Positions 2,462-43,679 of a stretch of DNA of 52,349 nucleotides are shown here, one piece after another (the stretch's first letter is position 1; every line of letters starts with the position of its first letter). A program made the translations under genes and the position numbers. The notes below the pieces were generated by a model. The model did not search any database, had not been told where the DNA came from, and saw only the letters and a list, made by a program, of their open reading frames with translations. The stretch is from Chloroflexota bacterium (GTDB taxonomy: Bacteria; Chloroflexota; Ktedonobacteria; Ktedonobacterales; JACDGC01). The stretch spans positions 1-52,349 of the forward strand of contig JAJYBV010000009.1 in the NCBI GenBank assembly GCA_021778805.1, read 5' to 3'.

Positions 2462-3571
2462 ATGACATTTCCGCTCGGACCCATTCACCCTGCCTTGCCG
2501 GAGCCAATCAGTTTAAAATTGGCCTTGCACGGAGAGAAAATTACAGGCGTAGAAACGCATACGGGATATTTAAAACGCAGCGTTGAAACCCTGATGCTGC
2601 AAAAAAATCTTGCAGATGCGCTGATTTTGGCTGAACGAATCTGCGGAACCTGCGGCTACAGCCATCGTTATGCGCTTTGCCTTGCTATTGAATCGCTTGC
2701 CGGAATAACACCGCCGCCGCGCGCACAAGCATTGCGCGTTGTATTCGCCGAAGTAGAGCGCATATTAGCGCGGCTGTGGACCCTGGCGCATATTGGGCGC
2801 GCGGCAGAATTAGGCGCGCTGTATACAGGATCGCTTGAGGCGCGCGAGGTACTGTTTGAAGCGTGCGCCGACGCCGCGGATAAACGACTGTTTTGGGAGA
2901 TTGCCGTTCCGGGCGGTGTACAAAATATTCAAGATCCGCAAGCAATAATCGACGCCATACAAGCATTGCAATCGGTACTTGCTCCGTTTGATCGGTTGCT
3001 TTCCCCGAAAGGGGCGCTGGTAAACCGCGCCAATTCGGTTGGAATAGTAACGCAAGACGCCGCAGAAGAAATGTGCATGAGCGGACCCGGCGCGCGCGCC
3101 GCGGGTGTTATGCGCGATGTACGGCGGGATGCGCCATATGATATCTATGCGCAAATGGCGGATATTCTTTCAACAGACCCTATCACGGGCTTTATAGCCG
3201 GCAGTGCGCCGGCGCGGGCATATCAAATGCTGATGGATATTCAGGAAAGCATGCGAATCATTACCGCAATATTTGATGAACTGCCCGATGGGCAGGAACG
3301 CGCAGCGTTGCCGGATATTTTACCGCCCGAAAAAACCGCTGTTACGATAGAAGGAGCGCGCGGCGCAGAAACGCTAACGCTTGAATTAAACGCCAACCGC
3401 GGAACCAACGCCGACCTTACCATGCCCGGATTTATTAAATCTATTGCTTTTGCCACCCCAAGCGGTGAAAATATCGGAGCGCTTCCGGTTATATTACAAG
3501 AAACTTTGCTTTCAGATGCGCTGATAGCGCTTTCCAGCCTGGATCTTTGCATTGCCTGTGTAGATAAATAA
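2462..3571 (+). CDS. Group-4 (energy-converting, Ech/Mbh-like) [NiFe]-hydrogenase large subunit, NuoD-like, 369 aa.
   Basis: The N-terminus GPIHPALPEPISLKL resembles the EchE/NuoD N-terminus. The L1 motif R-I-C-G-T-C-G-Y-S-H matches RxCGxCxxxH. The protein ends with the L2 motif D-L-C-I-A-C-V-D-K, matching [DE][PL]CxxCx[DE][RK]. There is no C-terminal extension after L2, as in Ech-type enzymes. GGAG lies 8 nt upstream of the ATG. Confidence 0.75.
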   Translation: MTFPLGPIHPALPEPISLKLALHGEKITGVETHTGYLKRSVETLMLQKNLADALILAERICGTCGYSHRYALCLAIESLAGITPPPRAQALRVVFAEVERILARLWTLAHIGRAAELGALYTGSLEAREVLFEACADAADKRLFWEIAVPGGVQNIQDPQAIIDAIQALQSVLAPFDRLLSPKGALVNRANSVGIVTQDAAEEMCMSGPGARAAGVMRDVRRDAPYDIYAQMADILSTDPITGFIAGSAPARAYQMLMDIQESMRIITAIFDELPDGQERAALPDILPPEKTAVTIEGARGAETLTLELNANRGTNADLTMPGFIKSIAFATPSGENIGALPVILQETLLSDALIALSSLDLCIACVDK

Positions 3572-3577
3572 CGCAGC

Positions 3578-5767
3578 GTGGGTTCAGGATTCTATGAGAA
3601 AGGTACTGCAATGCTCACACTCTCGAATCTTTCACTTGCGCTGATTTTGGCGCCATTTTTGGCAGGGGTTATCCTTGCCGCCGCCGGCGCGCGCCTGCCC
3701 CGCATTGCGGGTATTGCGATTGCCCTGCTTGCGGCTGTCATTTCCATTGCCGCCGCGTTAACACTGGCCGGCAATGTTTTTCCCGACGGCCCAATCGTTT
3801 TTGCGTTCCCCCTATTTGGCGCGGCTATCGGTCAGCGATTGGATGGATTAAGCGCATATGCGTTAATCGGTTTAACCGTTTGGGTTATCCCTATCCTTTT
3901 GTGGGTTACATTTCCGCGCAGCAAACCAAATTTCCGGCCAATGGGCCTTGTTCTGCTGGCTTCTGCGCTAACTAGCGGCGCTATACTAAACGATAATATT
4001 ATTCTTATCGCGCTTTGCTGGCTGGGAGCCGCCGTTATGGCGTGGCTGATTACCGTTTCTGAAGATATTGCCGGTGGCGCCGAAAACGTTTACCAAACCC
4101 GCTGGGTCGATTTAGTTACCCTTGGCGCCGGCCCAATTTTATTTGTATTGACAATGGTTCCGGTAATGGCAGCGCTGAAAAAAAGCTCCCTGCTCGATAT
4201 AACCGGAGTCACTGTAAATGGCGCATCTCCATTTTCTTTTTTAAACGCTGCGCTGATAGTTGTCGCGTTTTTGTTTGCGCTGGGCGCATATCCCTTTATG
4301 TTGTGGATTCGCCGCGCCGCGCTGGGCATTTCGTCCCATGGGCTGGGTATTATCGGGTTGCTGTACCTTCCCGCCGGTCTTATTTTATTTGCGCGGGTAA
4401 GCTCCGTCATCAATAACCCATGGCCGTCTGTTCCTATCGGCATCGGCTTCTCACTCAACACAATTTACATTATTTTCGGTGTCGCAACTGTTTTCGCCGC
4501 ATCCATAACACTGATGGCGGAGCGCGATATTATGGCTATTGCCCTGCTGTTAGCCGAAAATATTGCAGGGTGGATGATTATTGCTATCGGTTCAGGAAAC
4601 AGCCAAGCGTTAGTTGGCGTTACCTTGCTGCTTGCCGGGTATATCGCCGCGCTGGGCGCATTGGTTGCGGTTATAGCGTCTTTGGAATGCCGCTTAATCA
4701 AAGAGGTTTCCATTGATTCTCTGAAGGGGTTTGCCAAATTTTTACCGCTGCATTTTATTGCGGCGGCAATTGCGCTGCTGTGCCTTGCCGGCGCGCCGCT
4801 TTTGATTGGCTTCGCTTCCTTTGCTCTTATAAATCTTGCGATAGCCAAGTGGGGTGGTTTTGCGTTTTTAGCCGGCGGCGTACTTTGGGTAAGTCAAGGA
4901 TTTATTGCAATTGCCGTCACCCGATACCTTGCCTCATTCTTGGCGCCAAACAACAGCCTTTCCAATGAAGAAACAAATTTATTGCGGTCCGGCGCATCTG
5001 AGGCGCCGTTATTCAGTCTGCCGATTATTATCATGCTGATGGTAAGCATTGCCCCGCAGATGCTTTTGGCGCCGGTCAATCTTATTCCCGGGTTAGGGCA
5101 GCTTGCCGCCGCCTCGTTACTGAACCAAGGTGTGGAAATTCCTAATATTGCAATTTCTATGTTTGGCATTCAAACAACCGGCATATCTTGGGAACCGGGT
5201 TTGTTTTGGATCTTTGGGCTGCTGCTTTTTGCTATTGCGGCGCTGCTTTCCGGAGCCGTTGCTGTAAAAGGCAGCACGTTGCCTGCATTTGCCGGCGGCG
5301 AGCCGTTCCGCGAAGAAGAGATGAACGGATTTACTCCTTGGGCAACTGTTACCCGCATAGCGCGAACCCCGCTTATTTTGCCAGGCCCCGCAAAATGGCG
5401 CAATGATTTAGGCGCTATTGATATTGAAGGTGAACAAGAAAACAGCTCTGAAACAGACACCGACATAGAAGATGAAGGTGAAGCTGAAGCGGATGAAAAC
5501 GCAGACGAAGCAAACGCCGCGACAGTAGTCCCGGAAAAAGCGCATCCAGCTCCAAAATCAGAGACGCCGCGCGCGCATGCACAAAAAACATCGGCCGGCA
5601 AGCAGCCATCAGTGGAGACTAAACAAGAAAAAACCACTGCCGCAGCCACAGTAAATCCAAAGCCGGCCGCCACGACGCCAGCTAAAATTCCACAGAAAAA
5701 TATTCCGCCAAACACACAGCGTCAATCTCAAAAGAAGCATAAGGGGGGGCATAGCCATGGCCGCTAA
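3578..5767 (+). CDS. Polytopic membrane protein with about 14 TM helices, probably a highly degenerate antiporter-like (NuoL/MrpA/EchA-like) subunit, followed by a roughly 170-aa disordered acidic and K/P/T/A-rich C-terminal tail.
   Basis: It is tightly packed between the hydrogenase large and small subunit genes and overlaps the next gene by 11 nt. It is strongly hydrophobic for about 560 aa. The stretch LLLAENIAGWMIIAIGSG loosely resembles the NuoL/M 'LAYSSISHMGFVLIAIG' region but lacks the His. I could not find the canonical GPTPVSALIHAATMV motif by eye. The tail contains EGEQENSSETDTDIEDEGEAEADENADEA followed by PAPKSETPRAHAQKTSAGKQPSVETKQEK. The track start is a GTG at 3578. An in-frame ATG at 3611 (MLTLSNLS) has a GAGAAAGG Shine-Dalgarno-like sequence and may be the true start. 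Confidence 0.5.
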   Translation: MGSGFYEKGTAMLTLSNLSLALILAPFLAGVILAAAGARLPRIAGIAIALLAAVISIAAALTLAGNVFPDGPIVFAFPLFGAAIGQRLDGLSAYALIGLTVWVIPILLWVTFPRSKPNFRPMGLVLLASALTSGAILNDNIILIALCWLGAAVMAWLITVSEDIAGGAENVYQTRWVDLVTLGAGPILFVLTMVPVMAALKKSSLLDITGVTVNGASPFSFLNAALIVVAFLFALGAYPFMLWIRRAALGISSHGLGIIGLLYLPAGLILFARVSSVINNPWPSVPIGIGFSLNTIYIIFGVATVFAASITLMAERDIMAIALLLAENIAGWMIIAIGSGNSQALVGVTLLLAGYIAALGALVAVIASLECRLIKEVSIDSLKGFAKFLPLHFIAAAIALLCLAGAPLLIGFASFALINLAIAKWGGFAFLAGGVLWVSQGFIAIAVTRYLASFLAPNNSLSNEETNLLRSGASEAPLFSLPIIIMLMVSIAPQMLLAPVNLIPGLGQLAAASLLNQGVEIPNIAISMFGIQTTGISWEPGLFWIFGLLLFAIAALLSGAVAVKGSTLPAFAGGEPFREEEMNGFTPWATVTRIARTPLILPGPAKWRNDLGAIDIEGEQENSSETDTDIEDEGEAEADENADEANAATVVPEKAHPAPKSETPRAHAQKTSAGKQPSVETKQEKTTAAATVNPKPAATTPAKIPQKNIPPNTQRQSQKKHKGGHSHGR

Positions 5768-6221
5768 AAATCACGCAGTGTGGGTTTACCCCATCGCCAT
5801 GGGCGCATGCAATGGCTGCGATCAGCAAATTTTAGCGCTGAATGCGCCGGCGTATCAGCTGCGATCTATGGGCATTTCGTTTGTAAACAGCCCGCGGCAC
5901 GCCGATATTGTGCTGCTCACCGGTGTGTTAACAAAACGCATGCGCAGTATAGTAGAACGCACATTAGAGGCGGTTCCCAGCCCGCACGCACTGGTAGCAG
6001 TCGGAGATTGCGCCATTCATGGTGGCGTATTTGCCGATAATCCGCAAATTTTTGCCAACGCCTCTGATATATTAAATGTAAATATTGAAATTGCCGGCGA
6101 CCCTCCAACTCCGGATCAGATTATTGCGGCAATTGTTGAAGCTGCCCGTCAGTTAGATGAAGCCGATAAACCTGCAAATACCGCAGAATCAACACAAGAT
6201 GAGGAGGATTCGACTAAATGA
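5757..6221 (+). CDS. Group-4 [NiFe]-hydrogenase small subunit, NuoB-like, 154 aa, with a non-canonical proximal Fe-S ligand set.
   Basis: The motif V-G-D-C-A-I-H-G-G-V-F matches the NuoB/EchC GxCAxxGGxF cluster motif. The usual N-terminal CC pair is replaced by C-N-G-C. The C-terminal 'PGCPP' motif reads A-G-D-P-P-T-P, so the fourth Cys is Asp. GGGGGG lies 8 nt upstream of the ATG, and the gene overlaps the preceding gene by 11 nt, suggesting translational coupling. The C-terminus is an acidic tail. Confidence 0.7.
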   Translation: MAAKNHAVWVYPIAMGACNGCDQQILALNAPAYQLRSMGISFVNSPRHADIVLLTGVLTKRMRSIVERTLEAVPSPHALVAVGDCAIHGGVFADNPQIFANASDILNVNIEIAGDPPTPDQIIAAIVEAARQLDEADKPANTAESTQDEEDSTK

Positions 6222-7210
6222 ATCCGATAATCAGCGCGCTGATTACGATATGTATCTATCCGGGCGCACTTTTTGCTATTGTGGCAGCGGTACTGTTGGG
6301 GTGGGTTCGCGGCTATGCCCGCGCGGCAGCCTCGGGTAACGCCAACGCCGCGCCGGTGTTCTCTCTTCGCGAAATCACTCGGCGCACACGGCAGCAAAGC
6401 GTGGAAACCGAAGGCACTAATTTTGCTGTTACGCAAATAATAACTATTGCGGCAATAACCGCGCCGCTGTTAGCGCTGGTGTTTATGCCTTTTCCGGGAA
6501 ACAGCAATCCAAGCATAAGCCTGTTTCCAACAAACGCCATTGCGGAAGCCGCCCTACTGCTGGGTATGCCGTTAAGCAAAATATTGCTTGGCTGGTTAAC
6601 ACCCTCACCCTACACCCGATTAGCCGCGATACGGTCTGTACGCGCGCTGTTGGGATATGTTGTTCCGTTTGTATACGCAGTTACGGTTGCCATGGCGCTG
6701 CACGGTTCATTAACTTTGGAGGGCTTTTTTACCCCTATACCTTCGGGAACTGCAATTCATAACTATTTTATCGAGGTTATATTACTGATTGCAGGATTGC
6801 TCTATCTTATATGCATACCGGTGTTTACCCGTTTAACGCCACTGCGCGCAGATTTTGGCGCTATCGAGCTGGCGTCTGGTGAATTGACGGAATTGAGCGG
6901 CGGACAACTGCTGGTTATGCGCGCCGCCGAAGCAATTCAAACCTTGGCGTTTATCGGTTTTGGCGTCTCTATTTTTGTTGCCCCGTTATTTTCAGCCGGC
7001 GCAATTCGCTCCGTTAGTTTTATAGCGATTCTGTTTATTGTTGCTATTTTATTAGGGGTATGGGAAGGCTTCGCGCCGCGCATCCGCACATCTGAAGATT
7101 ATATGCAGCCAATAACAGCCTGGAATAACATGGGATTGCTGATATTGGAAGCAGCTGGAATACTCGGGTTTTTAGTCATACATCTCATCAACATCTATTT
7201 TCATTGGTAA
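6218..7210 (+). CDS. NuoH/EchB/HycD-like membrane anchor subunit, 330 aa.
   Basis: The start overlaps the small-subunit stop by 4 nt, with AGGAGG 9 nt upstream. The protein has multiple TM helices. D-F-G-A-I-E-L-A-S-G-E-L-T-E-L-S-G-G matches the NuoH 'FDLAEGESELVAGYxTEYSG' loop. The C-terminal P-R-I-R-T-S-E-D-Y-M-Q-P-I-T-A-W matches the NuoH 'PRxRxDQxMxxxW' motif. Confidence 0.65.
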   Translation: MNPIISALITICIYPGALFAIVAAVLLGWVRGYARAAASGNANAAPVFSLREITRRTRQQSVETEGTNFAVTQIITIAAITAPLLALVFMPFPGNSNPSISLFPTNAIAEAALLLGMPLSKILLGWLTPSPYTRLAAIRSVRALLGYVVPFVYAVTVAMALHGSLTLEGFFTPIPSGTAIHNYFIEVILLIAGLLYLICIPVFTRLTPLRADFGAIELASGELTELSGGQLLVMRAAEAIQTLAFIGFGVSIFVAPLFSAGAIRSVSFIAILFIVAILLGVWEGFAPRIRTSEDYMQPITAWNNMGLLILEAAGILGFLVIHLINIYFHW

Positions 7211-7251
7211 TTTTGGCGCATTAAGATACAGATACAACAATCCGAAGTTTA

Positions 7252-7289
7252 CAATGGGGCGGCTATAAAGCTGCCCCATTGCTATATTC
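7252..7289 (+). terminator. Candidate intrinsic terminator after the hydrogenase-like operon.
   Basis: The arms caatggggcggc / gctgccccattg form a 12-bp stem with one mismatch around a tataaa loop. A moderately U-rich tail, ctatattc, follows. Confidence 0.4.
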
Positions 7290-7454
7290 AAAACATCGCA
7301 AATGAGCAGAAAAATGCAACGCCAATACTGATTTTCGTAATTACGCAGGGGATTTTGACAAGGTCTCCATAAAGCAAAAGATACCGCGCGATATTGATAG
7401 TCAGGCAGCAAGGGCGCCAATATTGCCCTGGGAATATTTTTTTTAATAAAAAAA

Positions 7455-7510
7455 TTGGGGGGACACCCCAATCCCCGCGCAACGGGCTACCGCCCCTTAC
7501 GTATCCTCAG
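7455..7510. repeat. Solo copy of the GGGGACACCCC palindromic repeat unit.
   Basis: The sequence ggggggacaccccaatccccgcgcaacgggctaccgccccttacgtatcc has the same unit architecture as the arrays at 29981-30235, 40594-41035 and 45749-46193. Confidence 0.8.
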
Positions 7511-7572
7511 TTTTGTGCGCCGCGCCGAAGCAAAAGCGCCATAAAATAACAATACTGATTTTTTATCTTATC

Positions 7573-7601
7573 TTGACAAAATGTTCTAAGTATGTTACAA
7601 T
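7573..7601 (+). promoter_or_regulatory. Near-consensus sigma70-type promoter for the 7667 gene.
   Basis: TTGACA (7573-7578), an exact 17-bp spacer, and TACAAT (7596-7601). Confidence 0.55.
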
Positions 7602-7666
7602 AAGAACATAGGTTTTACTATAACCAATTTTAAACAGATATTTCACCGCTTTTGAGGAGGCGTGAC

Positions 7667-8395
7667 ATGAATAAACAACCAAATGAATCAATTTATCCCG
7701 CCAATTGGCTTTTTGGCAAAGATTTTGATCCCTCAGAACATCTTATGAAAATCGATCGCTTTGATCGCGCAACTCAACGTAAAATCGTTAATGAATATAT
7801 GAATGTGCAAAATCGTCTGCTTTGGTTTATCCGCGACCAGCGCGCGATTATTGCTTCCGGCGCCGCTAAAGGCGCCTATGAAATAAAAACCGAATTAATA
7901 GAGCTGGATAGGCAGGTTGGCTGGGCGCATTTTAAAACCTACATCCGCGACACGCTGGGCAACGAAGCGGTTATGTATGGCTCCGAATCCGCGCGCGATT
8001 TTCCGGATTTTATTGAAAAAGCCAACACAAAATCATTGGGCCGCGCGCTGCTTCTGCTGGGTTACGGCACAGCGTTTGCCAACGAAATGGATGAGGAAGA
8101 TCGCTTTGTGGATGCTCCTCAATCTATTACAAAAGAACCGGCTGAACCCTATAAAACCGGCGCGGCCCAGCCTAAAACCAATACCGTTTCCGTGCTTCAC
8201 GAACCGGCGGCTGATTTTGCCAAAACTCCAGACCTGATGGCTACAGAACGGCAAAAAACTAGTATTCAAAAAATCTGCGCAAAACTAGGGCAGCCTGAAC
8301 CAGATATTAATTCAATGTCGTTCGACACCGCGCGGAATACACTGGCGCAATTAAGTGTGCTACTTCAACAAAAACGAACATTGACCGCCGTATAG
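7667..8395 (+). CDS. Hypothetical protein, about 243 aa.
   Basis: The ORF track starts at a TTG (7652). An ATG at 7667 sits 6 nt after GAGGAGG and is preferred. No family was recognised. The C-terminal third is low-complexity. The gene has its own strong promoter downstream of the hydrogenase cluster. Confidence 0.5.
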   Translation: MNKQPNESIYPANWLFGKDFDPSEHLMKIDRFDRATQRKIVNEYMNVQNRLLWFIRDQRAIIASGAAKGAYEIKTELIELDRQVGWAHFKTYIRDTLGNEAVMYGSESARDFPDFIEKANTKSLGRALLLLGYGTAFANEMDEEDRFVDAPQSITKEPAEPYKTGAAQPKTNTVSVLHEPAADFAKTPDLMATERQKTSIQKICAKLGQPEPDINSMSFDTARNTLAQLSVLLQQKRTLTAV

Positions 8396-8407
8396 CGCCG
8401 CCGATTC

Positions 8408-9841
8408 CTATGGTTCTTCTGAATTTGCCGCCAACAACTCCGCGCGCTCTTTTTCCGCGGTAGTATGCGCGGCAAATATTGGCTGAAACGCAAAGTAATT
8501 CATCGGGCTGCGCCAGCCAAACCATAACGCCAACGGCGCAATCAACGGCAAATCATTTCGGTTAACCGGCCGAAACCACGCCCATGCTATCAATCCCACC
8601 CACACTCCAAATTCCATGCCGCTCCATAGTATATGCGGCCCAAAGGGAATGTCGCGGCTCAGCGCCAAACTAATCGGGCCAAACCCTATTGGATAAAATG
8701 AATCCGTCGCCGGAACCAGCACACTTTGAAACCACGCCACCGGGCTTAAGATGATAAACGGCAAATTGACGGCAAAAAAGACCGCAAACATCCACACACC
8801 ACCGGCAATTGCCGCTTTCCATCCGTCTTTTTTATAGATTGCAATGAAATAAAACGGCGCAAAAAACCACGCCAATTGTTTTATCGAACACGCCAATCCC
8901 ATCATTATCGCCGACGCGCGCCGGTTAGGGCTAAAAAACCACGCCGCAGCAATACACAAAATGACAATCACATCATAATTAACAAATATCGTATAATTCC
9001 AAATCGCCGGATTCAGCAGCGCGGCGGTAAGCATACTTGGGCGCTGCTCTGGCAAGGCGCGGCGCAGCAGCAAAAAAATTAATATGGCAAACGCCAATAA
9101 ATTCAGCCACAGCAACGATGGCATGCCAGCCCAAATAAATGGCGCGCCCAGCAGTAATATACCTGCTGGATAATTATGCACCGTGCGCGGATCAAACGCC
9201 GTAGTTGTTTTTTCGCCACTGGAAAAAACCTGGTGTATCACCACTTCCCGCGCCGCTATAGAAGGATAATTCAATGGGTTAGCGCCAAACGCATGAGCGC
9301 CCAGCACAGGTGTTGGTGTTTCACCCGGCCAACGCTGCAAAGCCTGCCAAAATGCCGCATTATCGGTATACGGGTTTACGCCATGCAAAATAAGATCAAT
9401 ATCCATATGTATAAACGCTATGGCGTCTACACGATAGTTTCCCGTCACCGCATCGGTAATTTGCGGCGCCGCAAAATTCGTTGCGGTAATAAAAAACGCC
9501 ATTATCCACACAATTTGAATAAGCCGGTACCACAGCGTATGCGATATTTTTTCATAAATCACTTGAACGCCTTTAGGTAGTTGATTATGCGAAGCAACCC
9601 ATAACAGGGCAAAAGCAGCTATCGCAAAAAGAATACCCGCCGGACCTTGCCAGCGCAGCAGCGCGCCTTCCCCGGGACTGACTATCGTTATCGCCTGGAA
9701 CAAAAAAAATTGTCCGGTCAATAATGTCATCCACCGCCAAGAAGGTGTGAACATAGCAATTAAAAAATTACCGGCTTTTTCCCATAGCCGAATAAATCGG
9801 CGGAGATAGTCGGCAAAAATAAAAGGTTGTGTGTGCATCAT
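8408..9841 (-). CDS. Integral membrane protein, 477 aa, likely a GT-C-type glycosyltransferase-like protein of the DUF2029 or ArnT/PMT class.
   Basis: It has about 12 TM helices with aromatic-rich periplasmic loops. The family call rests on general resemblance only. Confidence 0.35.
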   Translation of the reverse strand: MMHTQPFIFADYLRRFIRLWEKAGNFLIAMFTPSWRWMTLLTGQFFLFQAITIVSPGEGALLRWQGPAGILFAIAAFALLWVASHNQLPKGVQVIYEKISHTLWYRLIQIVWIMAFFITATNFAAPQITDAVTGNYRVDAIAFIHMDIDLILHGVNPYTDNAAFWQALQRWPGETPTPVLGAHAFGANPLNYPSIAAREVVIHQVFSSGEKTTTAFDPRTVHNYPAGILLLGAPFIWAGMPSLLWLNLLAFAILIFLLLRRALPEQRPSMLTAALLNPAIWNYTIFVNYDVIVILCIAAAWFFSPNRRASAIMMGLACSIKQLAWFFAPFYFIAIYKKDGWKAAIAGGVWMFAVFFAVNLPFIILSPVAWFQSVLVPATDSFYPIGFGPISLALSRDIPFGPHILWSGMEFGVWVGLIAWAWFRPVNRNDLPLIAPLALWFGWRSPMNYFAFQPIFAAHTTAEKERAELLAANSEEP

Positions 9842-9959
9842 AGTATATAAAACGTTTCTGCGCCGGTTAATGTCTCAGCTAGACTCAATATAGTTAAAGT
9901 TTATACTAAGCAGCCCTTCATATGCAATTTATGTTGCTATTCCTTGCGCAAATTCATCT

Positions 9960-9988
9960 TTGCATGCCGATACGTTATCATATATAAT
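9960..9988 (+). promoter_or_regulatory. Sigma70-type promoter driving the pheS leader.
   Basis: TTGCAT (9960-9965), a 17-bp spacer, and TATAAT (9983-9988). Confidence 0.5.
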
Positions 9989-9994
9989 GATAAC

Positions 9995-10360
9995 AACAGT
10001 TATCGCAACGCGCGCGTATAACTTCAAAATAGAGCGCAATTATATGCGTTGAAAAGTTTTGCGTTCATGGGAAAAAAGTATCCGCATGGTTCCGCGCAGG
10101 GAGAGCCTGGCCAAAGACTGAAAGCCGGCTTGCGGCGCCCGCCGAGAAGTTCGTTCCCAAGCAGATTATTGAACATGCAGTGCAGTAGGTAATCCGGCGG
10201 CCGGCCGTTACCCGGCAAAACAAGTGGCGGAATATATATTGCGGGAGCCGCATGCGGTATTGAGTTTACCAGCCCCCAAATGTTTCGCAACCAGGGTGGT
10301 ACCACGAATAATGCTTGGTATAGCAGTCTCGTCCCTGTGGCGAGGCTGCTTTTTTATGTG
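9995..10360 (+). promoter_or_regulatory. T-box riboswitch leader (tRNA-Phe sensing) upstream of pheS.
   Basis: The T-box sequence c-c-a-G-G-G-T-G-G-T-A-C-C-A-C-G at 10291-10306 matches the aGGGUGGnACCgCG consensus. It is followed by an intrinsic terminator with stem gcagtctcg / cgaggctgc (10323-10349) and a TTTTTT tract (10350-10356). A UUC Phe codon in a GAGAAG-UUC-G context at about 10150 is a candidate specifier. Confidence 0.6.
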
Positions 10361-10496
10361 TTTTTTTAGGCAAAACACCAACCAAAATCTACATCAGAAA
10401 TTTGCGCATTCTTAAGCGAGATGTTTGTTATCTCAATATCACTAAAATGCGTCATTTCCAATGCAGCGGTTAGTACATACTATAAGGAGACTTCAC

Positions 10497-11522
10497 ATGC
10501 TTGATTTATTGCGCATACTGCAAGAAAGCGCGTTAAAAGCGCTGCTTTCTGCCGAAACAAGCGCCGAAATTGCGCAATGGCAAAATTTGTATTTAGGGCG
10601 GCAAGATGGCGAATTAACTAAAATTCTGCGCGGATTAAAAGATGTGCCGGCAGCAGACCGCAAAACCATCGGTCAACGCGCCAACGAAGTAAAAAATGAG
10701 CTGGAAGAGCAAGCCGAACTGCGCAAAAAAGCTATCGCAGAGCAAGAACTTGTAAGCGCTTTAGTTGCGGAACGACTAGATGTTACGTTGCCGGCCCGCA
10801 CGCTGAACAGCGGATATATGCACCCCATTTCACAAACAATTTACGAAATCTGCGGTATTTTCCAAAAACTTGGCTTTCATGTGATTGAAGGACCCGAAGT
10901 TGAAACTGATTATTATAACTTTCAGGCGTTAAATATTCCGCAAGACCACCCCGCAAGGGATATGCAGGATACTTTTTGGGTTGAGCCAGGCCAAATTTTA
11001 CTGCGAACTCAAACATCGCCCAACCAAATTCGAATTATGGAGCAAACTAAACCGCCGGTGCGCGCCGTTGTTCCGGGCAAAGTCTATCGCAACGAAGCGA
11101 CCGACGCTACCCACGAAGCCATGTTTCACCAAATAGAAGGCCTTGCAATAGATTCTTCAACCACTATGCGCGACTTGCGCGGCGCGTTGGAAGCTTTTGC
11201 CCGAGAGTTATTTGGCCCGCAAACAAAAACACGGTTTCGGCCGAGTTATTTTCCATTTACGGAACCCAGCGCAGAAGTTGATGTTACTTGCAATGTTTGT
11301 GGCGGCTCTGGCTGTAGAGTTTGCAAGTTTTCCGGCTGGGTTGAAATCGGCGGCAGCGGCATGGTGCACCCGCAAGTGCTGCGCAATGTGCAATACGATC
11401 CCGCGGTATATCGCGGATATGCGTTTGGCATTGGCGTAGAGCGCATTGCAATGATGCGCTATGGTATCAATGAAATTCGCCTGTTCTCTCAAAATGATCT
11501 GCGGTTTTTACGGCAATTTTAA
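10497..11522 (+). CDS. pheS: Phenylalanine-tRNA ligase alpha subunit.
   Basis: The class II aaRS core is present, including FPFTEPSAE and GWVEIGGSGMVHPQVL motifs and the conserved C-terminus ...RYGINEIRLF. An AAGGAG Shine-Dalgarno sequence lies 7 nt before the ATG at 10497. The track ORF begins earlier, at 10461. Confidence 0.9.
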   Translation: MLDLLRILQESALKALLSAETSAEIAQWQNLYLGRQDGELTKILRGLKDVPAADRKTIGQRANEVKNELEEQAELRKKAIAEQELVSALVAERLDVTLPARTLNSGYMHPISQTIYEICGIFQKLGFHVIEGPEVETDYYNFQALNIPQDHPARDMQDTFWVEPGQILLRTQTSPNQIRIMEQTKPPVRAVVPGKVYRNEATDATHEAMFHQIEGLAIDSSTTMRDLRGALEAFARELFGPQTKTRFRPSYFPFTEPSAEVDVTCNVCGGSGCRVCKFSGWVEIGGSGMVHPQVLRNVQYDPAVYRGYAFGIGVERIAMMRYGINEIRLFSQNDLRFLRQF

Positions 11523-21116: not shown

Positions 21117-22304
21117 TTGAGCGCCTTCTTATTGATGATGGGATTCATTTTATCCTTGCCGGCGCCTTCCTATGCTTCTACCACCAACACCGGCCCAAAT
21201 AGTGATAACCCTGCTGCTTCTCCCGCTTCCTCACCTGCTGCTTCACCTACCGTGCGGCTTCGTGAGCCGGTTAAGCAGAACCCAACTTGGGTTGCAGCAA
21301 AATACTCTTTTCGAGTGTTTAGCGGCATTAATCCGAATCTTCCAATTAAAGGTCAAAAAATCTCTCCATTCGTCTTGCCCATCAGTCCTTTAAAATGCCC
21401 TACGCCTGTTGCTAACAGCGCTGCACCCAATCCTTTGTGTGGCTCAACACCTCCAACTGCCTATACCTTAACTCAAGATACCTATAACAAAAATACTTGG
21501 GAACCCAGCGACGGCACAGAACCCAATTCTCCCGGAGGCAGCTCTGCGGATGATCTTGGTGACGCATATAATTCAAATATTCCTGGCGTTCCAAGCAATA
21601 AAGATTTTTATGACCTGTGCGGTCCCGGCGCTACAGATATTGCCTTGGATTTTTGGCCGGCTCCGCCTAATTTGCTGGAAAACGTTACGGATGATCCCGA
21701 TTATGATAAAGCTGTTAACTATACCAGAAGCATTAACTTGCAAACTTATTGGAACGGCACTCGCATGCGCGGCTATATGACTTATCTCGCTTGGCAAACA
21801 CAAGCGCCAACTTGGCCTACAGCTGGCATGATGGATACCAGCACATACCCTTCAAATGGCGTTACTGAGTATGATATTCAAGATGCGCTCAATTGGGAAG
21901 CTTCAGGCCATAATGTGAGCACATGGCAGAACTATTTTTACTTAATAACTTGGTGGAATAAATCCTCTGCAAGCGGATTAAATCAAGACGTTGTTACAGA
22001 TGTTGCAAATTCACATGTTCCCGTTGTTGCTGAAGTAAACGCCGCTATGCTGCCAAATTGGGTAGATCATGGACCAGGTCTTGTAAAGCATCAGATAGCG
22101 ATTATTGGCTACGATAACATAAAGGGAACCTACACCTATGTTGATACCTGCGCAAATTTTACAAAATGTAATGTCGAAACTAATCCAATTAACGAAAACA
22201 ATTGGCATACTGTTCCACAATCAACCATGTGGCAAGCCATAATCGCGGTACCTGTCAACACCAGCCCGCTGCCGCAATACGGTGATGGCGGCTGGGTGTG
22301 GTAA
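21117..22304 (+). CDS. Secreted papain-like cysteine peptidase (Peptidase_C39_2/BtrH-like fold) with an N-terminal Pro/Ser/Ala-rich linker.
   Basis: It has a hydrophobic N-terminus. The candidate catalytic Cys is in L-C-G-P-G-A-T-D-I-A, the His in H-Q-I-A-I-I-G-Y-D-N, and the Asp in Y-V-D-T. The start is a TTG at 21117, or an ATG at 21138. Confidence 0.4.
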   Translation: MSAFLLMMGFILSLPAPSYASTTNTGPNSDNPAASPASSPAASPTVRLREPVKQNPTWVAAKYSFRVFSGINPNLPIKGQKISPFVLPISPLKCPTPVANSAAPNPLCGSTPPTAYTLTQDTYNKNTWEPSDGTEPNSPGGSSADDLGDAYNSNIPGVPSNKDFYDLCGPGATDIALDFWPAPPNLLENVTDDPDYDKAVNYTRSINLQTYWNGTRMRGYMTYLAWQTQAPTWPTAGMMDTSTYPSNGVTEYDIQDALNWEASGHNVSTWQNYFYLITWWNKSSASGLNQDVVTDVANSHVPVVAEVNAAMLPNWVDHGPGLVKHQIAIIGYDNIKGTYTYVDTCANFTKCNVETNPINENNWHTVPQSTMWQAIIAVPVNTSPLPQYGDGGWVW

Positions 22305-22461
22305 TTTCCTTGGCACAATCTTTAGCAAAATTATAAACCCGAATTAGCACACAAAAAAGTATCTTGTTCGGTTTTCCTTGATTAGTTTGCCGAGCAAGAT
22401 ACCAATGTAAAATAGTCTGTTTTCTTCAAATCGCCTACATACACAAATAGAAAGGCTTGTT

Positions 22462-23676
22462 ATGCAAAAACATATCATCTCTCGCTCATCCTTATCCCTT
22501 AAAAAAACACTTCTGCTATTTCTTTGCTTGGCTAGTATCAGTTTTTCCGCTTGCTCCAGCACGAGCATTGCCATACACAAAACCCCTGCGCCTACAGCAA
22601 CAGCAACACATGCGCCATCTGCTCCTTTCCTCGTTTCTTCGCAATGGCAGGTAGCGTATATTGATCAAACAGGAACGCTCCATGGTGTTACCCTGGATGG
22701 CAAACATGACCAAACTGGAAAACAAATTCAAGACCCCGAACTTACATCACAACAAAGCCCTGGGTTTCTGTGCAGTTCTATCAGCCCGGATGGGCATACC
22801 TTCAGCATGGATCTCAGTCAGTTTATGACCATTGATATTCGCGGAGTAACCCCTGATAGATTAGCGTCATTGCAATTTTTAGCATATGAATCGTTTTGGT
22901 CACCATTAGGAGACAAAGAAGCAGTTTTAGGCGGTGATTATGATTTCTATATCATCAATACTCGTGATGGAAACCCAGTCCGAATACCTTTTGATAATCT
23001 TACTCATCGTTTTAACATTGTAGGATGGATTGACGAAACACATCTTTTAATAGAAACTGAAACATTAGTACCAGGAAGCTCTGTAAACGTTTACTATACT
23101 GCTGAGTCGCTGAATATTGCCACAGGAAAAGCCACCATAATAGGTTCATTGTATCATGCTGAAATGCCGCAAGTGGCTGGTTTTATTTCTCCAGACGGCA
23201 AAACAGTTTTTATCTTTGATGTAGATGAGCAAGATAATCCCTTTCAACTTGTGCTGGCAACCATGAATCTGCAAACCGGGCAAATTACTCAATACCCGCA
23301 TATTGCCGCTGTTTTACAAAATAAAGATGTTATTACAAACGCGGTATGGAAACCCGGTTCCCAGGAATTAGTGCTGACCACCGGATTCCAAGAAAATAGT
23401 GATCTGCAAACCTGGATTGTGCATTTAGACACCGATTCCATCACTCCTTTGGTCGCAAATCAATTTGCCACCGCATGGAACGCCGAAACCAACACCATTC
23501 TTACCATTTCCGCCAATAATGGAATGGGTGATGGAGGAATTGCCGTTGATCGATCTGACCCTATTACCATATACGCCAATGCGCTGGATGCGCAGGAGCG
23601 CCCAACCAGTACCATATTAACCAAAAATGCTTATTTTACTTCAAACTTGGGGTTTATTCCGCCATCGCAACCGTAA
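22462..23676 (+). CDS. Lipoprotein with a TolB-like beta-propeller.
   Basis: The signal peptide carries an L-S-F-S-A-C lipobox. Repeated 'SPDG(H/K)T' blade motifs are present. Confidence 0.45.
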   Translation: MQKHIISRSSLSLKKTLLLFLCLASISFSACSSTSIAIHKTPAPTATATHAPSAPFLVSSQWQVAYIDQTGTLHGVTLDGKHDQTGKQIQDPELTSQQSPGFLCSSISPDGHTFSMDLSQFMTIDIRGVTPDRLASLQFLAYESFWSPLGDKEAVLGGDYDFYIINTRDGNPVRIPFDNLTHRFNIVGWIDETHLLIETETLVPGSSVNVYYTAESLNIATGKATIIGSLYHAEMPQVAGFISPDGKTVFIFDVDEQDNPFQLVLATMNLQTGQITQYPHIAAVLQNKDVITNAVWKPGSQELVLTTGFQENSDLQTWIVHLDTDSITPLVANQFATAWNAETNTILTISANNGMGDGGIAVDRSDPITIYANALDAQERPTSTILTKNAYFTSNLGFIPPSQP

Positions 23677-24391: not shown

Positions 24392-26137
24392 CTAAAAATT
24401 GCTTTGCCGGAACGTAGGCTTAATATTCGTTGCCGCAAAATCACCCTTAATTCGGCCGGTGTTCAGGTCGAACCCCATCTCGCGGAAAGTAAATAATTCA
24501 TGCGCTTCTATCGAAGAATCATCTGCGCCAACCACCTCAGTAATAGATATGATGCGGCGCGATCCATCTCGCAAACGCGCACACTGCACAATCACATCCA
24601 CACCGGAAGCAATTTGTCTGCGAATAGCGTTGGGTGTTGTTGAGCCAGCCGAAGCAGAGACTAAAGATTCCAGTCGATTCAGGGCGTCTTGAATAGAATG
24701 CGCTTGTAAAGTTGTCATCGAGCCGTTATGGCCGCAATGCAGCGCCTGAATAAATCCGAAAGCGTCTATTGGCCGCAGCTCACCCAAAATAATTCTTTGG
24801 GGGCTAAGCCGCAGAGTATTATAAATTAATTCACCGGTAGTAATATATGCGCCGGTAAAACCCGGCGGGCGTACCGAAGGAGCCTCGAAACGCGCCGCAT
24901 GCCGCTGCCGCAGCTGCAGTTCCGCCAATTCTTCAATGATCACGATTCGGTCGTTTTCATCGATACTATTGGCTAATGCATTTAACAAAGTGGTTTTTCC
25001 GGAACCGGGCGAACCGGAAATAATGATATTCACGTTATCCGCAACACATTCTTTTAAAAAATCTGCAATGTGCAAAGACATCATATCATTGCGCACCAGT
25101 TGTTCCAGCGCAAACATCCGCTTGATAGGCCTTCGGATGGTGAGGGTTGGCCCTGAAACCGCGTTGGGCGGAATAACAACATTGATGCGCGATCCGTCGG
25201 ATAATTGCCCGTCAAAAATTGGATTTTGCCGTGAAAGGGTTCCACCGGACGGATTAATTAGTTTATACAGCACGTGCATGAGATGAGATTCATCCAAAAA
25301 ATGAACCGGCACTTCATATAAACTGCCTCCTTGCTCTACATACGTCATATGAGGGCCAATAACCATTATTTCACTAACCGAATCATCGCGCAGCAACGGC
25401 TCCAATGGACCGGCTCCAAGCACTTCATCAACAACCAAACTGATGATTTTTTCATTTTCAGCCACTTTAGCAAAAGAATCTTGAGTTAACTCATTTGGCG
25501 CAATTTGCAGAGCCAGATTTCTAATAATTTCAATTGTTTCCGGAGTGCGTTCAACGGGTATATCCAAATTTTGGCTGTGATACAGTTCTTCAATTTGCAT
25601 CGCAATATTCACAGCTTTGGCTATCTGGGCATCTTCAGGGAATTGCAGATGCGGATGGTGTGATGCATTCATTACTGCTGCAGGTGGTGGCTGTGAATTT
25701 TCAAATGCATTTTGCGCGCTATCAATATCTATTTCATTTTGAAAAAATGTTACCGCTTCTTGGTATCCGGGCGCTCCATTAGGTGGAGGCGGTTCAAAAA
25801 CTAAAAAATCACTATTGCCGGCGCCGGTATCATTTGTTGGGTTTTCCTCCCAATATCCCTGTTCTTTAGGATTTCTGCCTGGCCATGTATCGATCGGCTC
25901 GGAATGAAACGACTGCTCTTTGTGAAACGATTGATCTTTAGAAATATTTTCTATCGCGTCGGGAACAACATCTCCAAAATTTTGCTTGCTAACCCAATCT
26001 TCGGTATGAAATGAAACATCTTGAGGTGGATATGATAAATGCAAGGTTGGGCTAAGCGAATAACTGGGTATTTCTTCGGAAATTGACGTTCCCTGATCTT
26101 GCATATTTGCGTTATGTTGTGTCGGATGGCGATGCAT
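24392..26137 (-). CDS. CpaF/TadA-type secretion ATPase of the VirB11/GspE superfamily, with a roughly 200-aa disordered N-terminal extension.
   Basis: Walker A is I-S-G-S-P-G-S-G-K-T-T-L-L-N-A-L. The Asp box and Walker B read RIILGELR. The His box is C-G-H-N-G-S-M-T-T-L-Q-A-H-S. A CpaF N-domain is present (VSEIMVIGPHMTYVEQ). The first roughly 200 aa are Q/P/E/N-rich and low-complexity. Confidence 0.8.
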   Translation of the reverse strand: MHRHPTQHNANMQDQGTSISEEIPSYSLSPTLHLSYPPQDVSFHTEDWVSKQNFGDVVPDAIENISKDQSFHKEQSFHSEPIDTWPGRNPKEQGYWEENPTNDTGAGNSDFLVFEPPPPNGAPGYQEAVTFFQNEIDIDSAQNAFENSQPPPAAVMNASHHPHLQFPEDAQIAKAVNIAMQIEELYHSQNLDIPVERTPETIEIIRNLALQIAPNELTQDSFAKVAENEKIISLVVDEVLGAGPLEPLLRDDSVSEIMVIGPHMTYVEQGGSLYEVPVHFLDESHLMHVLYKLINPSGGTLSRQNPIFDGQLSDGSRINVVIPPNAVSGPTLTIRRPIKRMFALEQLVRNDMMSLHIADFLKECVADNVNIIISGSPGSGKTTLLNALANSIDENDRIVIIEELAELQLRQRHAARFEAPSVRPPGFTGAYITTGELIYNTLRLSPQRIILGELRPIDAFGFIQALHCGHNGSMTTLQAHSIQDALNRLESLVSASAGSTTPNAIRRQIASGVDVIVQCARLRDGSRRIISITEVVGADDSSIEAHELFTFREMGFDLNTGRIKGDFAATNIKPTFRQSNF

Positions 26138-26337: not shown

Positions 26338-27666
26338 TTAAAACAATTCCGTTTTCAATAGTTCAACCTGATCTTCAGAAAGCACATCAAACATCACCAA
26401 AAGCGCCGCCAAATCATAATCTTTGCCGGCGGCAGATAATTCTTGTTTTATCCTGCCTAAAGACGCAATTTCATCGGCGGTCACCAAATCGCGGCTAACC
26501 AGCAGCGCCGCCAATAATTGATCCGGCGTTAAAAACTTAAATAACATGGCTAAATCAGTTACAGAAAATTCCATGCCAACGCTTTGCAGCGTCTGCTGAA
26601 TTGCGCGGAGCGCATCTAGTTTTTGCGGCGCCACAACCGCGCTATCCATTAAAAATGAGCTGAGCGCGCGATCATTTATATGGTCGCGCGGGCGCAGATC
26701 TTCGCTGCTAATAACCGGTATAGGTGTTGTTTGACTTTCCATACGGGGATCATCCGGAGCGATAGCGGCGCCGTTATATCCTCGGTATGCGAATCCCGGT
26801 TTAGGTTTTGGAGCCGGCGGTTCCCAAGCGTCATCAATGGAAATCTGTTTTGCCGGTTGGGAACGCTGCGGCGCTTTAGGTTTGGGTTTTGGCGCAAACG
26901 CTTCGGCAAACAAATCTTGTGATTGCGAAGAACGCGCTGATGGCGGCGGTGGTTCTTTTGGTGTACTTCGCCTTTCGGAAAATGGCGGCGGCGGCATTGA
27001 TGAAACAATTGGTGGCGGCCCACCGGATTTTGGATTCCGCTTAAAAGGATTTTCACTCAGCGGCTGCGCAAACGGCGAGGAATCACCGGAACTTTCAGAA
27101 AATAAATCTTCGGTGCTTGCGGGAATATTGAGTGGCGCCCAATTTTGAACAGACGGCGCCTCAAATGGGGGCAGCGATTGGCGCTGTTTTGGCAAAGGCA
27201 GCGATAAATTCGCCGGCGGGCCGTCGGTCCACATCGGTATAGGTGTAGCGTCGGGAAGTTTAGAGCGAATTAAGGCAATAAGTGTTTCAAATTCATTTGG
27301 CCCGGTTATCTCTATATCTGCGCGCGCCATTCGCAAGCCATCTTCTAAATTAGAGGTAATGCGTGTAGGATCATAGCGAAACGTAACAATCTGGAAATCG
27401 CGCGCATGGCGATGCGAATCCATACCAACCCAAAATTCGCGTCTGTTAGCGGCCGCGTTTGCCAGGTCTACAACAACCAAATCAACAGGATCATTTTGCA
27501 GCGTATGAAAAACTTCAACGGGTATTCTTGCGGCGCGCACATCATACCCCTCGGTGCGCAGCCGCGCCAAAATCGCCGCCGCGGTGGTGTCGTTGCGTTC
27601 AAATAACAGCACCATCGGCCCGGTTGCATTTATTTTTAGAGAAGACGGAGAAAGATTTTGGCGCAT
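26338..27666 (-). CDS. Regulator with an N-terminal atypical receiver (REC-like) domain, a central Pro-rich linker and C-terminal GspE_N/MshEN-like repeats.
   Basis: The REC-like region has an acceptor Asp in V-V-V-D-L and a Thr in Q-I-V-T-F. The acidic pair is replaced by E-R-N-D, and the conserved Lys is not evident. The C-terminus, LTPDQLLAALLVSRDLVTADEIASLGRIKQ ... DLAALLVMFDVLSEDQVELL, resembles type II secretion protein E N-domain repeats. Confidence 0.5.
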   Translation of the reverse strand: MRQNLSPSSLKINATGPMVLLFERNDTTAAAILARLRTEGYDVRAARIPVEVFHTLQNDPVDLVVVDLANAAANRREFWVGMDSHRHARDFQIVTFRYDPTRITSNLEDGLRMARADIEITGPNEFETLIALIRSKLPDATPIPMWTDGPPANLSLPLPKQRQSLPPFEAPSVQNWAPLNIPASTEDLFSESSGDSSPFAQPLSENPFKRNPKSGGPPPIVSSMPPPPFSERRSTPKEPPPPSARSSQSQDLFAEAFAPKPKPKAPQRSQPAKQISIDDAWEPPAPKPKPGFAYRGYNGAAIAPDDPRMESQTTPIPVISSEDLRPRDHINDRALSSFLMDSAVVAPQKLDALRAIQQTLQSVGMEFSVTDLAMLFKFLTPDQLLAALLVSRDLVTADEIASLGRIKQELSAAGKDYDLAALLVMFDVLSEDQVELLKTELF

Positions 27667-27805
27667 AGTTTAATATCTCTATATTTCAACATCTCGGCTA
27701 AACATACGCCACCACAGGCAAAAAGCGTAAGGCTAACCGGCTGGTATCAGGTAAAGTATACCATATATCTGTTAATCGGAAAATAGTGTTATGAAACTAG
27801 GATAT

Positions 27806-28468
27806 CTATGATCTTTTCGGTATTGGAACCAGTTGAACCAGCGTTCGCGCCATCGTCATAATTTCTGTTTGATATAATGCGCTCAACCGCCCATCCGAAT
27901 ACCCAAAATCATTCACACCAGCCAAAAAATAATCCGCCGGCAACGCTCCAATTGCAGGGAGGTTTAACGTTCGTGTTTGCTGTGGCAGCATATTGCGATC
28001 TGCCGGATCAATTTTGGAAAAGACCACACCGATGCGTCTACGCTGAATGAGAGTTTCAAATTTTTGCGCATAATGTTCTACATGACGTTCATCTTGCTCG
28101 GTTGGTCCGGAAAAAACAAGCAGATAATCAATATCGACCCGCGAGCGCTCTAACTGCTGCCGTTCTAAAAATGTATGATCTACATCTAATAATATGCAGG
28201 TTGCCCGGCCTTCCACCTCAATGCGCGCGCTAGCAATCATTTGGCTAAAATTACGCGCCTGATTTGGGCGCGGTGTCCACAGCACCATGCCGCGCATGCC
28301 AAAAGAATCTTTTAACCGATATAATGTTGTATTGTTCTTAATAATGTCCGTTAGTAATACAGGCGCCCGCTGATCTGTGAGTGATTTCCCCAAAAAGAAT
28401 GCAGCGGTGCTCACTCCCTGACCACGGTTTAACTGCGTTAAAGCAATGACTTTTACTGATGATGCCAT
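27806..28468 (-). CDS. MinD/ParA/CpaE-like protein with a degenerate P-loop, a probable pseudo-ATPase.
   Basis: In the deviant Walker A position, V-I-A-L-T-Q-L-N-R-G-Q-G-V-S-T-A-A-F-F-L-G replaces the KGGxGKT motif and has no Lys. An A'-like motif V-L-L-T-D-I and a Walker-B-like motif C-I-L-L-D-V-D-H are present. Confidence 0.45.
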   Translation of the reverse strand: MASSVKVIALTQLNRGQGVSTAAFFLGKSLTDQRAPVLLTDIIKNNTTLYRLKDSFGMRGMVLWTPRPNQARNFSQMIASARIEVEGRATCILLDVDHTFLERQQLERSRVDIDYLLVFSGPTEQDERHVEHYAQKFETLIQRRRIGVVFSKIDPADRNMLPQQTRTLNLPAIGALPADYFLAGVNDFGYSDGRLSALYQTEIMTMARTLVQLVPIPKRS

Positions 28469-42282: not shown

Positions 42283-42284
42283 TC

Positions 42285-43127: not shown

Positions 43128-43135
43128 CGCAGCAT

Positions 43136-43588: not shown

Positions 43589-43679
43589 CATCTATGTCTT
43601 AATATATGCATGTACATTGATGGCTTAGTTCGCAAATATCTTTTCTTAAACTTTCCGCCAACATTCGACGGAAATTGCT

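Follow-up and report, generated by a model that had tools for sequence, protein, structure and literature searches.

Can the iron-sulphur (Fe-S) cluster of a NuoB-type hydrogenase small subunit still be held when the last of its four cysteine ligands is an aspartate? This question is raised by a gene in a 52,349-nucleotide (nt) stretch of DNA from a Chloroflexota bacterium of the class Ktedonobacteria (GenBank assembly GCA_021778805.1, contig JAJYBV010000009.1, positions 1 to 52,349 of the forward strand), which was analysed at its full length and is hereafter called the window. The gene encodes the small subunit of a four-gene module related to the group-4 [NiFe] hydrogenases, in which the genes stand in the order large subunit, NuoL-like subunit, small subunit and NuoH-like subunit (Table 1). 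Our comparisons indicate that Asp does occupy the position of the fourth ligand, that the subunit has no Cys to replace it, and that the trait is conserved and under selection. We tentatively propose, at a probability of roughly 0.4, that a [4Fe-4S] cluster is held here by three Cys and the carboxylate of Asp115, in what would be the single Fe-S subunit of a four-gene membrane complex.

The small-subunit gene corresponds to exactly one open reading frame (ORF), stop codon included, and its product is 154 amino acids (aa) long. An initial annotation, made from the letters of the window alone, had assigned it to the NuoB/EchC-type small subunits, and this assignment stands. The protein scores 88.7 bits with Pfam PF01058 (NuoB/Oxidored_q6, 20-kDa subunit), whose cut-off is 27, its residues 18–128 covering profile positions 1–127 of 128, and its gene adjoins that of a large subunit with both NiFe Cys pairs. 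In a structure-sequence search its best solved relatives were MbhJ (6cfw_J, E=4e-26) and then HycG (7z0s_G, E=1.5e-23), with the complex-I NDUFS7/NuoB proteins ranking after both, while the NuoB models of NCBIfam scored below their cut-offs (NF005012, 83.9 vs 116; TIGR01957, 78.6 vs 142.7). Modelled by AlphaFold from an alignment of 27 sequences, the protein had a mean predicted local distance difference test (pLDDT) score of 89.9, rising to 96–97 across residues 101–130, the motif region, and Foldseek superposed the model on 6cfw_J with a root mean square deviation of 1.4 Å over 132 columns. The start of the gene overlaps the end of the NuoL-like gene by 11 nt and its stop codon overlaps the start codon of the NuoH-like gene (ATGA); the gene therefore sits within a tightly packed operon, with an intact frame and translational coupling to both neighbours.

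Gap-free HMMER alignments place Asp115 on the GCPP Cys of MbhJ (6cfw_J), HycG (7z0s_G) and NDUFS7, the segment IEIAGDPPTP of the window protein facing VFVPGCPPRP, VYIPGCPPTP and IYVPGCPPTA, respectively. Among 150 representatives, which are 50%-identity clusters drawn from 1.84 billion proteins, this position is Cys in 133, whereas the window subunit reads GD115PP, with the Asp encoded by GAC at 6099–6101. The reading of Asp in place of Cys in the CPP motif, with which the question began, was thus upheld, as was that of an intact third motif, GDCAIHGG, at residues 83–90. The initial annotation had also treated CNGC as a deviation from a tandem CC, and here it was mistaken: the motif has its counterparts in SCNGCDIE of MbhJ and GCNGCEIE of HycG, the first and second positions of CxxC are Cys in 144 and 142 of the 150 representatives, and none of them has the tandem CC, which is peculiar to the NuoB of complex I and of Fpo (PMC4758237). 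By these alignments CxxC, of the CNGC type, is the group-4 norm, and only one ligand of the small subunit is non-canonical, not two. A further change, absent from the initial annotation, is Gln24, at a position that is Glu in 121 of the 150 representatives.

We then looked for another nearby cysteine that could complete a canonical four-Cys set, an outcome that the initial annotation had named as one that would refute its proposal. The small subunit contains three Cys in total (C18, C21 and C85), and therefore the set cannot be completed by a fourth Cys of its own. Two other residues were considered and rejected. Some relatives carry a Cys in the sequence HAVWC, eight residues before CNGC, but in the window protein this residue is Val10, and the position is unconserved (I, V, C or F) and lies at the far end of the first β-strand. 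His88 of GDCAIHGG was discarded as a substitute ligand because its position varies across the clade (H, N, D or T).

That Asp115 is a sequencing or assembly error, or that the gene is a pseudogene, has a negligible probability. A change from Cys (TGY) to Asp (GAC) takes two to three base changes, and the identical small-subunit protein is found on 13 contigs from several assemblies. A 90%-identical orthologue, on contig DAIDIC010000035.1 of a Ktedonobacteria metagenome-assembled genome, shares the GAC codon and the arrangement of the four genes. Between the window and this relative, the genes for the large, small and NuoH-like subunits have ratios of nonsynonymous to synonymous substitution rates (dN/dS) of 0.13, 0.12 and 0.16, respectively, which indicates that purifying selection on the small subunit is strong, and the coupled frame is intact. 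The 13-contig recurrence, the shared codon and the dN/dS values refute both explanations.

The lineage is rare: of all the 50%-identity clusters in the library, no more than seven have a score better than E=1e-30. We assembled a superclade of 54 small-subunit sequences with 45–60% identity, made up of an inner clade of 23, the window included, and a sister clade of 31. In the inner clade, whose motif is CNGC(D/E)QQ, Gln24 is found in 23/23 sequences and ligand 4 is Asn in 19, Asp in two (the window and its Ktedonobacteria relative), Ser in one and Cys in one. The sister clade has the motif C(G/A/L)ACxQS, with Ser in place of the Glu at position 24, and keeps Cys at ligand 4 in 28 sequences; the other three have Asp (P0023), Gly (P0031) and Ser, and in four sister-clade sequences ligand 2 is Ser or Thr. 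All 54 sequences have C18 and C85, and each has lost either no ligand or one, never two. Every sequence thus retains at least three ligands, which fits a metal site needing at least three Cys, while in relatives that no longer have the cluster hardly any Cys is left (0–1 in P0252, P0317 and P0355). The single-ligand replacements are at least five independent events and all small (D, D, N, S, S and G at ligand 4; S and T at ligand 2); 8/9 of the replacing residues have an oxygen donor, Gly being the exception, and none is bulky, basic or hydrophobic. Asp at ligand 4 arose twice independently. The ligand-4 codons are TGT for Cys, AGT for Ser, AAT for Asn and GAC for Asp, the last also found in locus L009, and by codon comparison they form a stepwise Cys-Ser-Asn-Asp mutational path. 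In the searchable literature, whose coverage is incomplete, neither this clade nor a NuoB-type site of three Cys was found to be described, and the same holds for Asp or Asn at ligand 4 of a group-4 small subunit.

The large subunit can be aligned with MbhL over its whole length (6cfw_L, E=6e-37) and lacks a C-terminal extension. All four NiFe Cys are present in the window protein, in motifs L1 (C61 and C64) and L2 (C363 and C366), and in 22–23 of 24 members of the clade (large subunits P0121–P0145 compared); individual inner-clade losses are seen in P0131, which lacks all four, and P0143, which lacks one. Sister-clade large subunits (locus L011, 6832–7842; P0146–P0152, P0180 and P0198) lack the second Cys of L1, as in ERLCAQSG or ERSCSFAG, and keep DLCxEC. 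In these alignments a loss of NiFe ligands goes with kept Fe-S ligands among close relatives and vice versa, and the clade that has kept its NiFe Cys has, as a rule, three Cys at the Fe-S site. The surroundings of the NiFe Cys are altered: the window protein has GGVQNI for GGVRxD and ERILARL for ERIxSHL, and the canonical PRGE is PHGR in most clade members and ARGA(ETL) in the window, where the Arg is kept and the Glu and Tyr are lost.

The order large, NuoL-like, small and NuoH-like is repeated in 8 loci with unrelated flanks, and the four genes are therefore a self-contained module. A ferredoxin motif of the form CxxCxxCxxxC[PAGST] was absent from every frame of the window and of seven related loci, NuoC/EchD-like and NuoI/EchF-like genes were not found at the locus, and PF00329 gave no match on the 369-aa large subunit. 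The initial annotation had argued from a missing ferredoxin subunit to an electron-transfer route unlike known Ech enzymes. The gene for such a subunit is indeed not found at the locus, but the trait is not unique, as Ehr-type clusters are also without it. H2 catalysis and ion pumping by the complex are plausible by homology, though unproven, and the label hydrogenase is itself one that we infer.

If the proposed Asp ligation is correct, the site would keep a site-differentiated cubane cluster, with C18, C21 and C85 at three corners and Asp115 at the fourth. Such a cluster would readily lose its unique iron to become [3Fe-4S], and, owing to the non-thiolate ligand, its potential would be expected to exceed that of an all-Cys site and its robustness to O2 to increase. 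As the module has no NuoI-like or NuoC-like subunit, electrons passing between the NiFe-type site and an external redox partner would have the small-subunit cluster as their sole relay, and the partner would dock on the small subunit itself; this partner may be a soluble or membrane acceptor or donor to which the cluster would be exposed. The loss of the small-subunit Glu and of the large-subunit GGVR Arg, whose position aligns with the GGVH His of complex I, shows that the environment of the cluster was remodelled on both sides. The presence and type of the cluster, the H2 chemistry, its direction, the partner and any ion coupling are what we infer from sequence comparison. Asp ligation is favoured because Asp arose twice, because the replacing residues nearly all offer an oxygen donor and none is bulky, and because there is a precedent in the group-1h hydrogenase (AH) of C. 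necator, whose proximal [4Fe-4S] is bound by three Cys and one Asp and which loses its O2 insensitivity when the Asp is replaced (PMC11023054). The host is a Ktedonobacteria-like soil bacterium and the hosts of the clade appear to be aerobic, because Ktedonobacteria are described as aerobic H2/CO oxidisers; their reported hydrogenases are mainly group-1h (bioRxiv 10.1101/2021.08.23.457424).

Several observations weigh against this reading. Ligand 4 is not fixed among close relatives, where Asn predominates and Ser, Gly and Cys occur elsewhere, and Asp is restricted to two closely related species and the one independent sister-clade sequence. To our knowledge Asn is not an established Fe-S ligand, and the variation may mean that no particular side chain is required and that Asp is a tolerated filler. 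The suggestion of the initial annotation that an Asp-tuned cluster characterises the system is weakened accordingly, most close relatives having Asn, one Ser and one Cys; and since Asp is not the characteristic residue of the family, a [3Fe-4S] site becomes a serious alternative, in which the fourth ligand has been lost, its place is taken by an Asp, Asn, Ser or Gly that does not bind iron, and the cluster acts as a high-potential single relay. The medial cluster of group-1 hydrogenases offers a parallel. We judge this alternative possible, if somewhat unlikely. It would account for the variation of position 4 in both clades while the other Cys are kept, and for the Gly of P0031, which cannot ligate; moreover, the all-[3Fe-4S] chain of Huc, a group-2a enzyme with three such clusters, works in air (PMC11023054), and the hosts here seem to be aerobic soil bacteria. 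An empty corner, however, would not need the oxygen donors found in 8/9 of the replacing residues, nor the absence of hydrophobic ones. Natural Cys-to-Asp sites known to us often assemble [4Fe-4S], as does that of the P. furiosus ferredoxin. The C. necator AH is a further case (PMC11023054).

Other doubts concern the complex as a whole. Residues invariant in 48/48 canonical group-4 large subunits (among them the GGVR Arg, Asp156, His104, Arg256 and Tyr306) are altered in the clade, so that H2 catalysis is not assured, and hyp maturation genes were not found in the 52-kb window; both likewise count against the proposal. The module might instead be a non-hydrogenase, Ehr-like system for ion translocation or for some redox reaction, with decaying metal ligands and a cluster that is absent or structural only, which we consider improbable. 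The nearest four-Cys small subunits outside the superclade, a CNGCELE type with 44–50% identity, adjoin EhrL-type large subunits without the C-terminal NiFe Cys pair in 47–48 of 70 fetched loci and a NiFe-type large subunit in 0/70; the sister clade is short of one NiFe Cys and P0131 and P0143 of four and one; many catalytic-shell residues of the large subunit are altered; and the NuoL-like subunit has no invariant Lys among six family members. Yet no superclade sequence has lost two Fe-S ligands, about 95% of the inner clade has four NiFe Cys, purifying selection is strong, and homologues truly without the cluster lose nearly all Cys. That a Cys of another subunit completes a canonical four-Cys [4Fe-4S] is very improbable. 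One candidate is Cys135 of the large subunit (FEAC), a clade-specific residue that 22/24 sequences of the inner clade have and that neither the sister clade nor canonical group-4 enzymes share; but it is also present in L013, whose small subunit keeps the GCPP Cys, so that it does not co-vary with ligand loss, and in all solved homologues known to us the four ligands come from the NuoB-like subunit.

Beyond Asp ligation itself, the module may be a minimal free-standing NuoD/NuoL/NuoB/NuoH core that works as a [NiFe] hydrogenase in aerobic soil bacteria and passes electrons directly to a soluble partner or quinone via a single oxygen-ligated or three-iron cluster, a proposal that we rate as unlikely. 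If true, it would be a new group-4 subgroup that links complex I and the Ehr complexes to true hydrogenases, and redox-coupled ion translocation could be studied experimentally on a very small system. A lineage that has kept its NiFe Cys, with three Cys plus Asp, Asn or Ser at its only cluster and without ferredoxin- or NuoC-like subunits, would show the reduction limit of the energy-converting core, and the clade would be a natural experiment in which ligand chemistry tunes a key cluster beside the active site, as with the group-1h Asp. The inverse pattern of four Fe-S and no NiFe Cys, four and three, and three and four across the related clades maps the loss of metal sites in this superfamily and bears on the origin of complex I from hydrogenases. 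If the complex is inactive, the finding would be merely a degenerate Ehr-like variant.

Table 1. Features of the four-gene module in the window (residue numbers refer to the respective subunit).
Feature	Position	Strand	Basis
Large (NuoD/MbhL-like) subunit, 369 aa	2462..3571	+	PF00346, PF00374; MbhL alignment
L1 motif RICGTCGYSH (C61, C64) of large subunit	2636–2665	+	Aligned to MbhL
L2 motif DLCIACVDK (C363, C366) of large subunit	3542–3568	+	Aligned to MbhL
NuoL/antiporter-like membrane subunit, 729 aa	3578..5767	+	PF00361, E=7e-10
Small (NuoB/MbhJ-like) subunit	5757..6221	+	PF01058, MbhJ/HycG matches, AlphaFold
CNGC (C18, C21), canonical CxxC ligand pair	5808..5819	+	Aligned to MbhJ, HycG
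Gln24 in place of conserved Glu (CNGCExE / CCxxE)	5826..5828	+	Alignment of representatives
GDCAIHGG (C85), third ligand, intact (residues 83–90)	6003..6026	+	Cys invariant in 54 superclade sequences
AGDPPTP, Asp115 at fourth (GCPP) ligand position (residues 113–119)	6093..6113	+	Gap-free alignments
Short acidic disordered C-terminal tail of small subunit	6159..6218	+	pLDDT ~52, residues 141–154
NuoH/HycD-like membrane subunit, 330 aa	6218..7210	+	PF00146, E=3e-16

The two membrane subunits gave no match in sequence searches of the PDB at E<=0.001, and all four proteins of the module fell below every curated NCBIfam cut-off. In the NuoH-like subunit Glu65, Glu222, Glu225 and Glu238 are invariant among family members. 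Among six members of the NuoL-like family no Lys, His or membrane Glu is invariant, the invariant charged residues including D89, D139, D317 and several Arg, which suggests that the canonical proton-relay residues of antiporter-like subunits may not be conserved here. The NuoL-like subunit has Cys only at 147, 371 and 402, and lacks a Cys-rich motif; its last 140 aa or so (about 5350–5767) form a hydrophilic tail of low complexity. This tail begins with an acidic stretch (DIEGEQENSSETDTDIEDEGEAEADENADE), continues as a region rich in Pro, Lys, Thr and Gln, and finishes with KKHKGGHSHGR; a long antisense ORF over it, at 5170–5715 on the reverse strand, is probably a compositional artefact. The NuoL-like relatives are similar in overall length (714–787 aa).

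The tails of the small subunits also differ. The relatives (alignment A1, P0002–P0043) have long poly-acidic extensions at both the N- and C-termini and those of the sister clade end in a conserved EGRDA, while the window protein has no N-terminal extension and only a short acidic C-terminal tail. At L007 (14162–16929), a relative of the Asn type, the module is followed, at a distance of ~3.5 kb, by nuoJ-, nuoK- and nuoL-like genes, with two genes of the opposite strand in between.

An Rfam scan of the whole window gave no match, and its remaining genes are housekeeping genes, among them those for Phe-tRNA synthetase, homoserine dehydrogenase, glycosyltransferases, FtsW/RodA and kinases. Upstream of the module, the seemingly ORF-free positions 1–2024 belong to a GH31 glycosidase gene on the reverse strand, of which the window end leaves only the 5' two-thirds, as seen in the syntenic loci L001–L003. 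Downstream are genes for a 247-aa protein without a Pfam or NCBIfam match (7652–8395, forward strand) and a 477-aa multi-pass membrane protein with a weak ALG3 match (8408–9841, reverse strand), which is GT87/PMT_2-like in L007. Both genes follow the operon in near-identical contigs, and a GT87-like gene also follows the module of L007. Further along, at 41335–45095, FhaA-like (FhaA_N+FHA), FHA-only and FtsW/RodA genes come after one for a riboflavin kinase/FAD synthetase, an arrangement reminiscent of the actinobacterial fhaA-fhaB-...-rodA cell-wall regulatory cluster, and a second FtsW/RodA paralogue lies at 34251–35534. Four ORFs without a Pfam match (395, 404, 442 and 220 aa), at 21117–23676 and 26338–28468, adjoin a T2SSE-type secretion ATPase (24392–26137) and an SPFH/Band-7 protein.

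How does the module compare with known systems? Judged by its small subunit, the nearest outgroup is found in Ehr-like clusters, which also lack a ferredoxin-like subunit. A metagenome scan by generic peptide patterns returned mostly Ehr-type loci instead of further clade members, and these loci served as an outgroup control; a ferredoxin motif was found nearby in only one of 80 fetched loci. The CNGCELE clusters have the order NuoL/NuoH, 220-aa protein, NuoN-like, NuoC+D-like and small subunit, and their EhrL-type large subunits end in NKSFNxxYSGHDL. This order matches the ehrABCDLS composition of Geobacter and Methylacidiphilum (PMC7894505, PMC6688271), and Ehr is defined by the absence of canonical Ni-Fe ligands in the large subunit (PMC4758237). 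The Ehr-like comparators were L023–L093 and L094; in the last (3439–10525) a fused NuoL+NuoH protein of 983 aa is followed by the 220-aa protein, a NuoN-like protein and a NuoC+D-like large subunit ending in NKSFNCAYSGHDL. The ligand pattern is reversed between the two systems, Ehr having four Fe-S Cys and no canonical NiFe ligands, whereas the window complex has three Fe-S Cys and four NiFe Cys. Their gene sets differ too, as the window module has one antiporter-like gene and neither a HyfE-like gene nor a NuoC-like domain, while L094 has two antiporter-like genes and a HyfE-like gene.

Among solved hydrogenases, MbhJ of P. furiosus (6CFW chain J) shares ~36% identity with the window subunit, as well as CNGC, SPRHAD, GxCxxxGG and the PP after ligand 4. 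It differs in the Cys of GCPP and the Glu of CNGCDIE, where the window has Asp and Gln, and the window module has four genes only, whereas Mbh is a 14-subunit complex with a NuoI-like MbhN and a NuoC-like MbhK. HycG of the E. coli formate hydrogenlyase (FHL; 7Z0S chain G) has the same domain and the same spacing of CNGC, GxC and G-x-PPTP, but four Cys rather than three, and it works with the ferredoxin-type subunits HycF/HycB, counterparts of which were not found at the window locus. Ech (group 4e) is a small membrane-bound group-4 enzyme whose large subunit of ~360 aa has no C-terminal extension; large-subunit size and the NuoL-like and NuoH-like membrane subunits are common to both, and the large subunit of one relative carries the JGI label 'ech hydrogenase subunit E'. 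Ech, however, has six subunits (EchABCDEF), with a NuoC-like EchD, an EchF with two [4Fe-4S] clusters and a four-Cys EchC; the EchD-like and EchF-like genes and the fourth Cys are missing from the window module. NuoB/Nqo6/PSST of complex I, which holds cluster N2, belongs to the same Pfam family and fold with homologous ligands 3 and 4, but has tandem CC and Glu (CCxxE) where the window has CxxC and Gln; the sub-cut-off NCBIfam scores are a further difference. The characterised NuoB-type subunits that we know of, in complex I, Mbh, FHL and Ech, are all four-Cys proteins fed by a NuoI-type ferredoxin subunit.

The AH (5AA5) and Huc enzymes offer a likeness of another kind, being [NiFe] hydrogenases of aerobic bacteria with natural Asp-containing or three-Cys clusters. 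They belong to other hydrogenase groups and are soluble or membrane-associated uptake enzymes with three clusters each, and the resemblance, drawn by ligand set and not by ligand position, is one of functional analogy and not of membership. Judged by gene content and motifs, the module fails the defining features of Ech, Mbh, FHL, Ehr, canonical group-4 small subunits and complex-I NuoB. By the same comparisons its small subunit is homologous to MbhJ, HycG, EchC and NuoB, and the module is a new variant within the superfamily of group-4 hydrogenases, Ehr and complex I.

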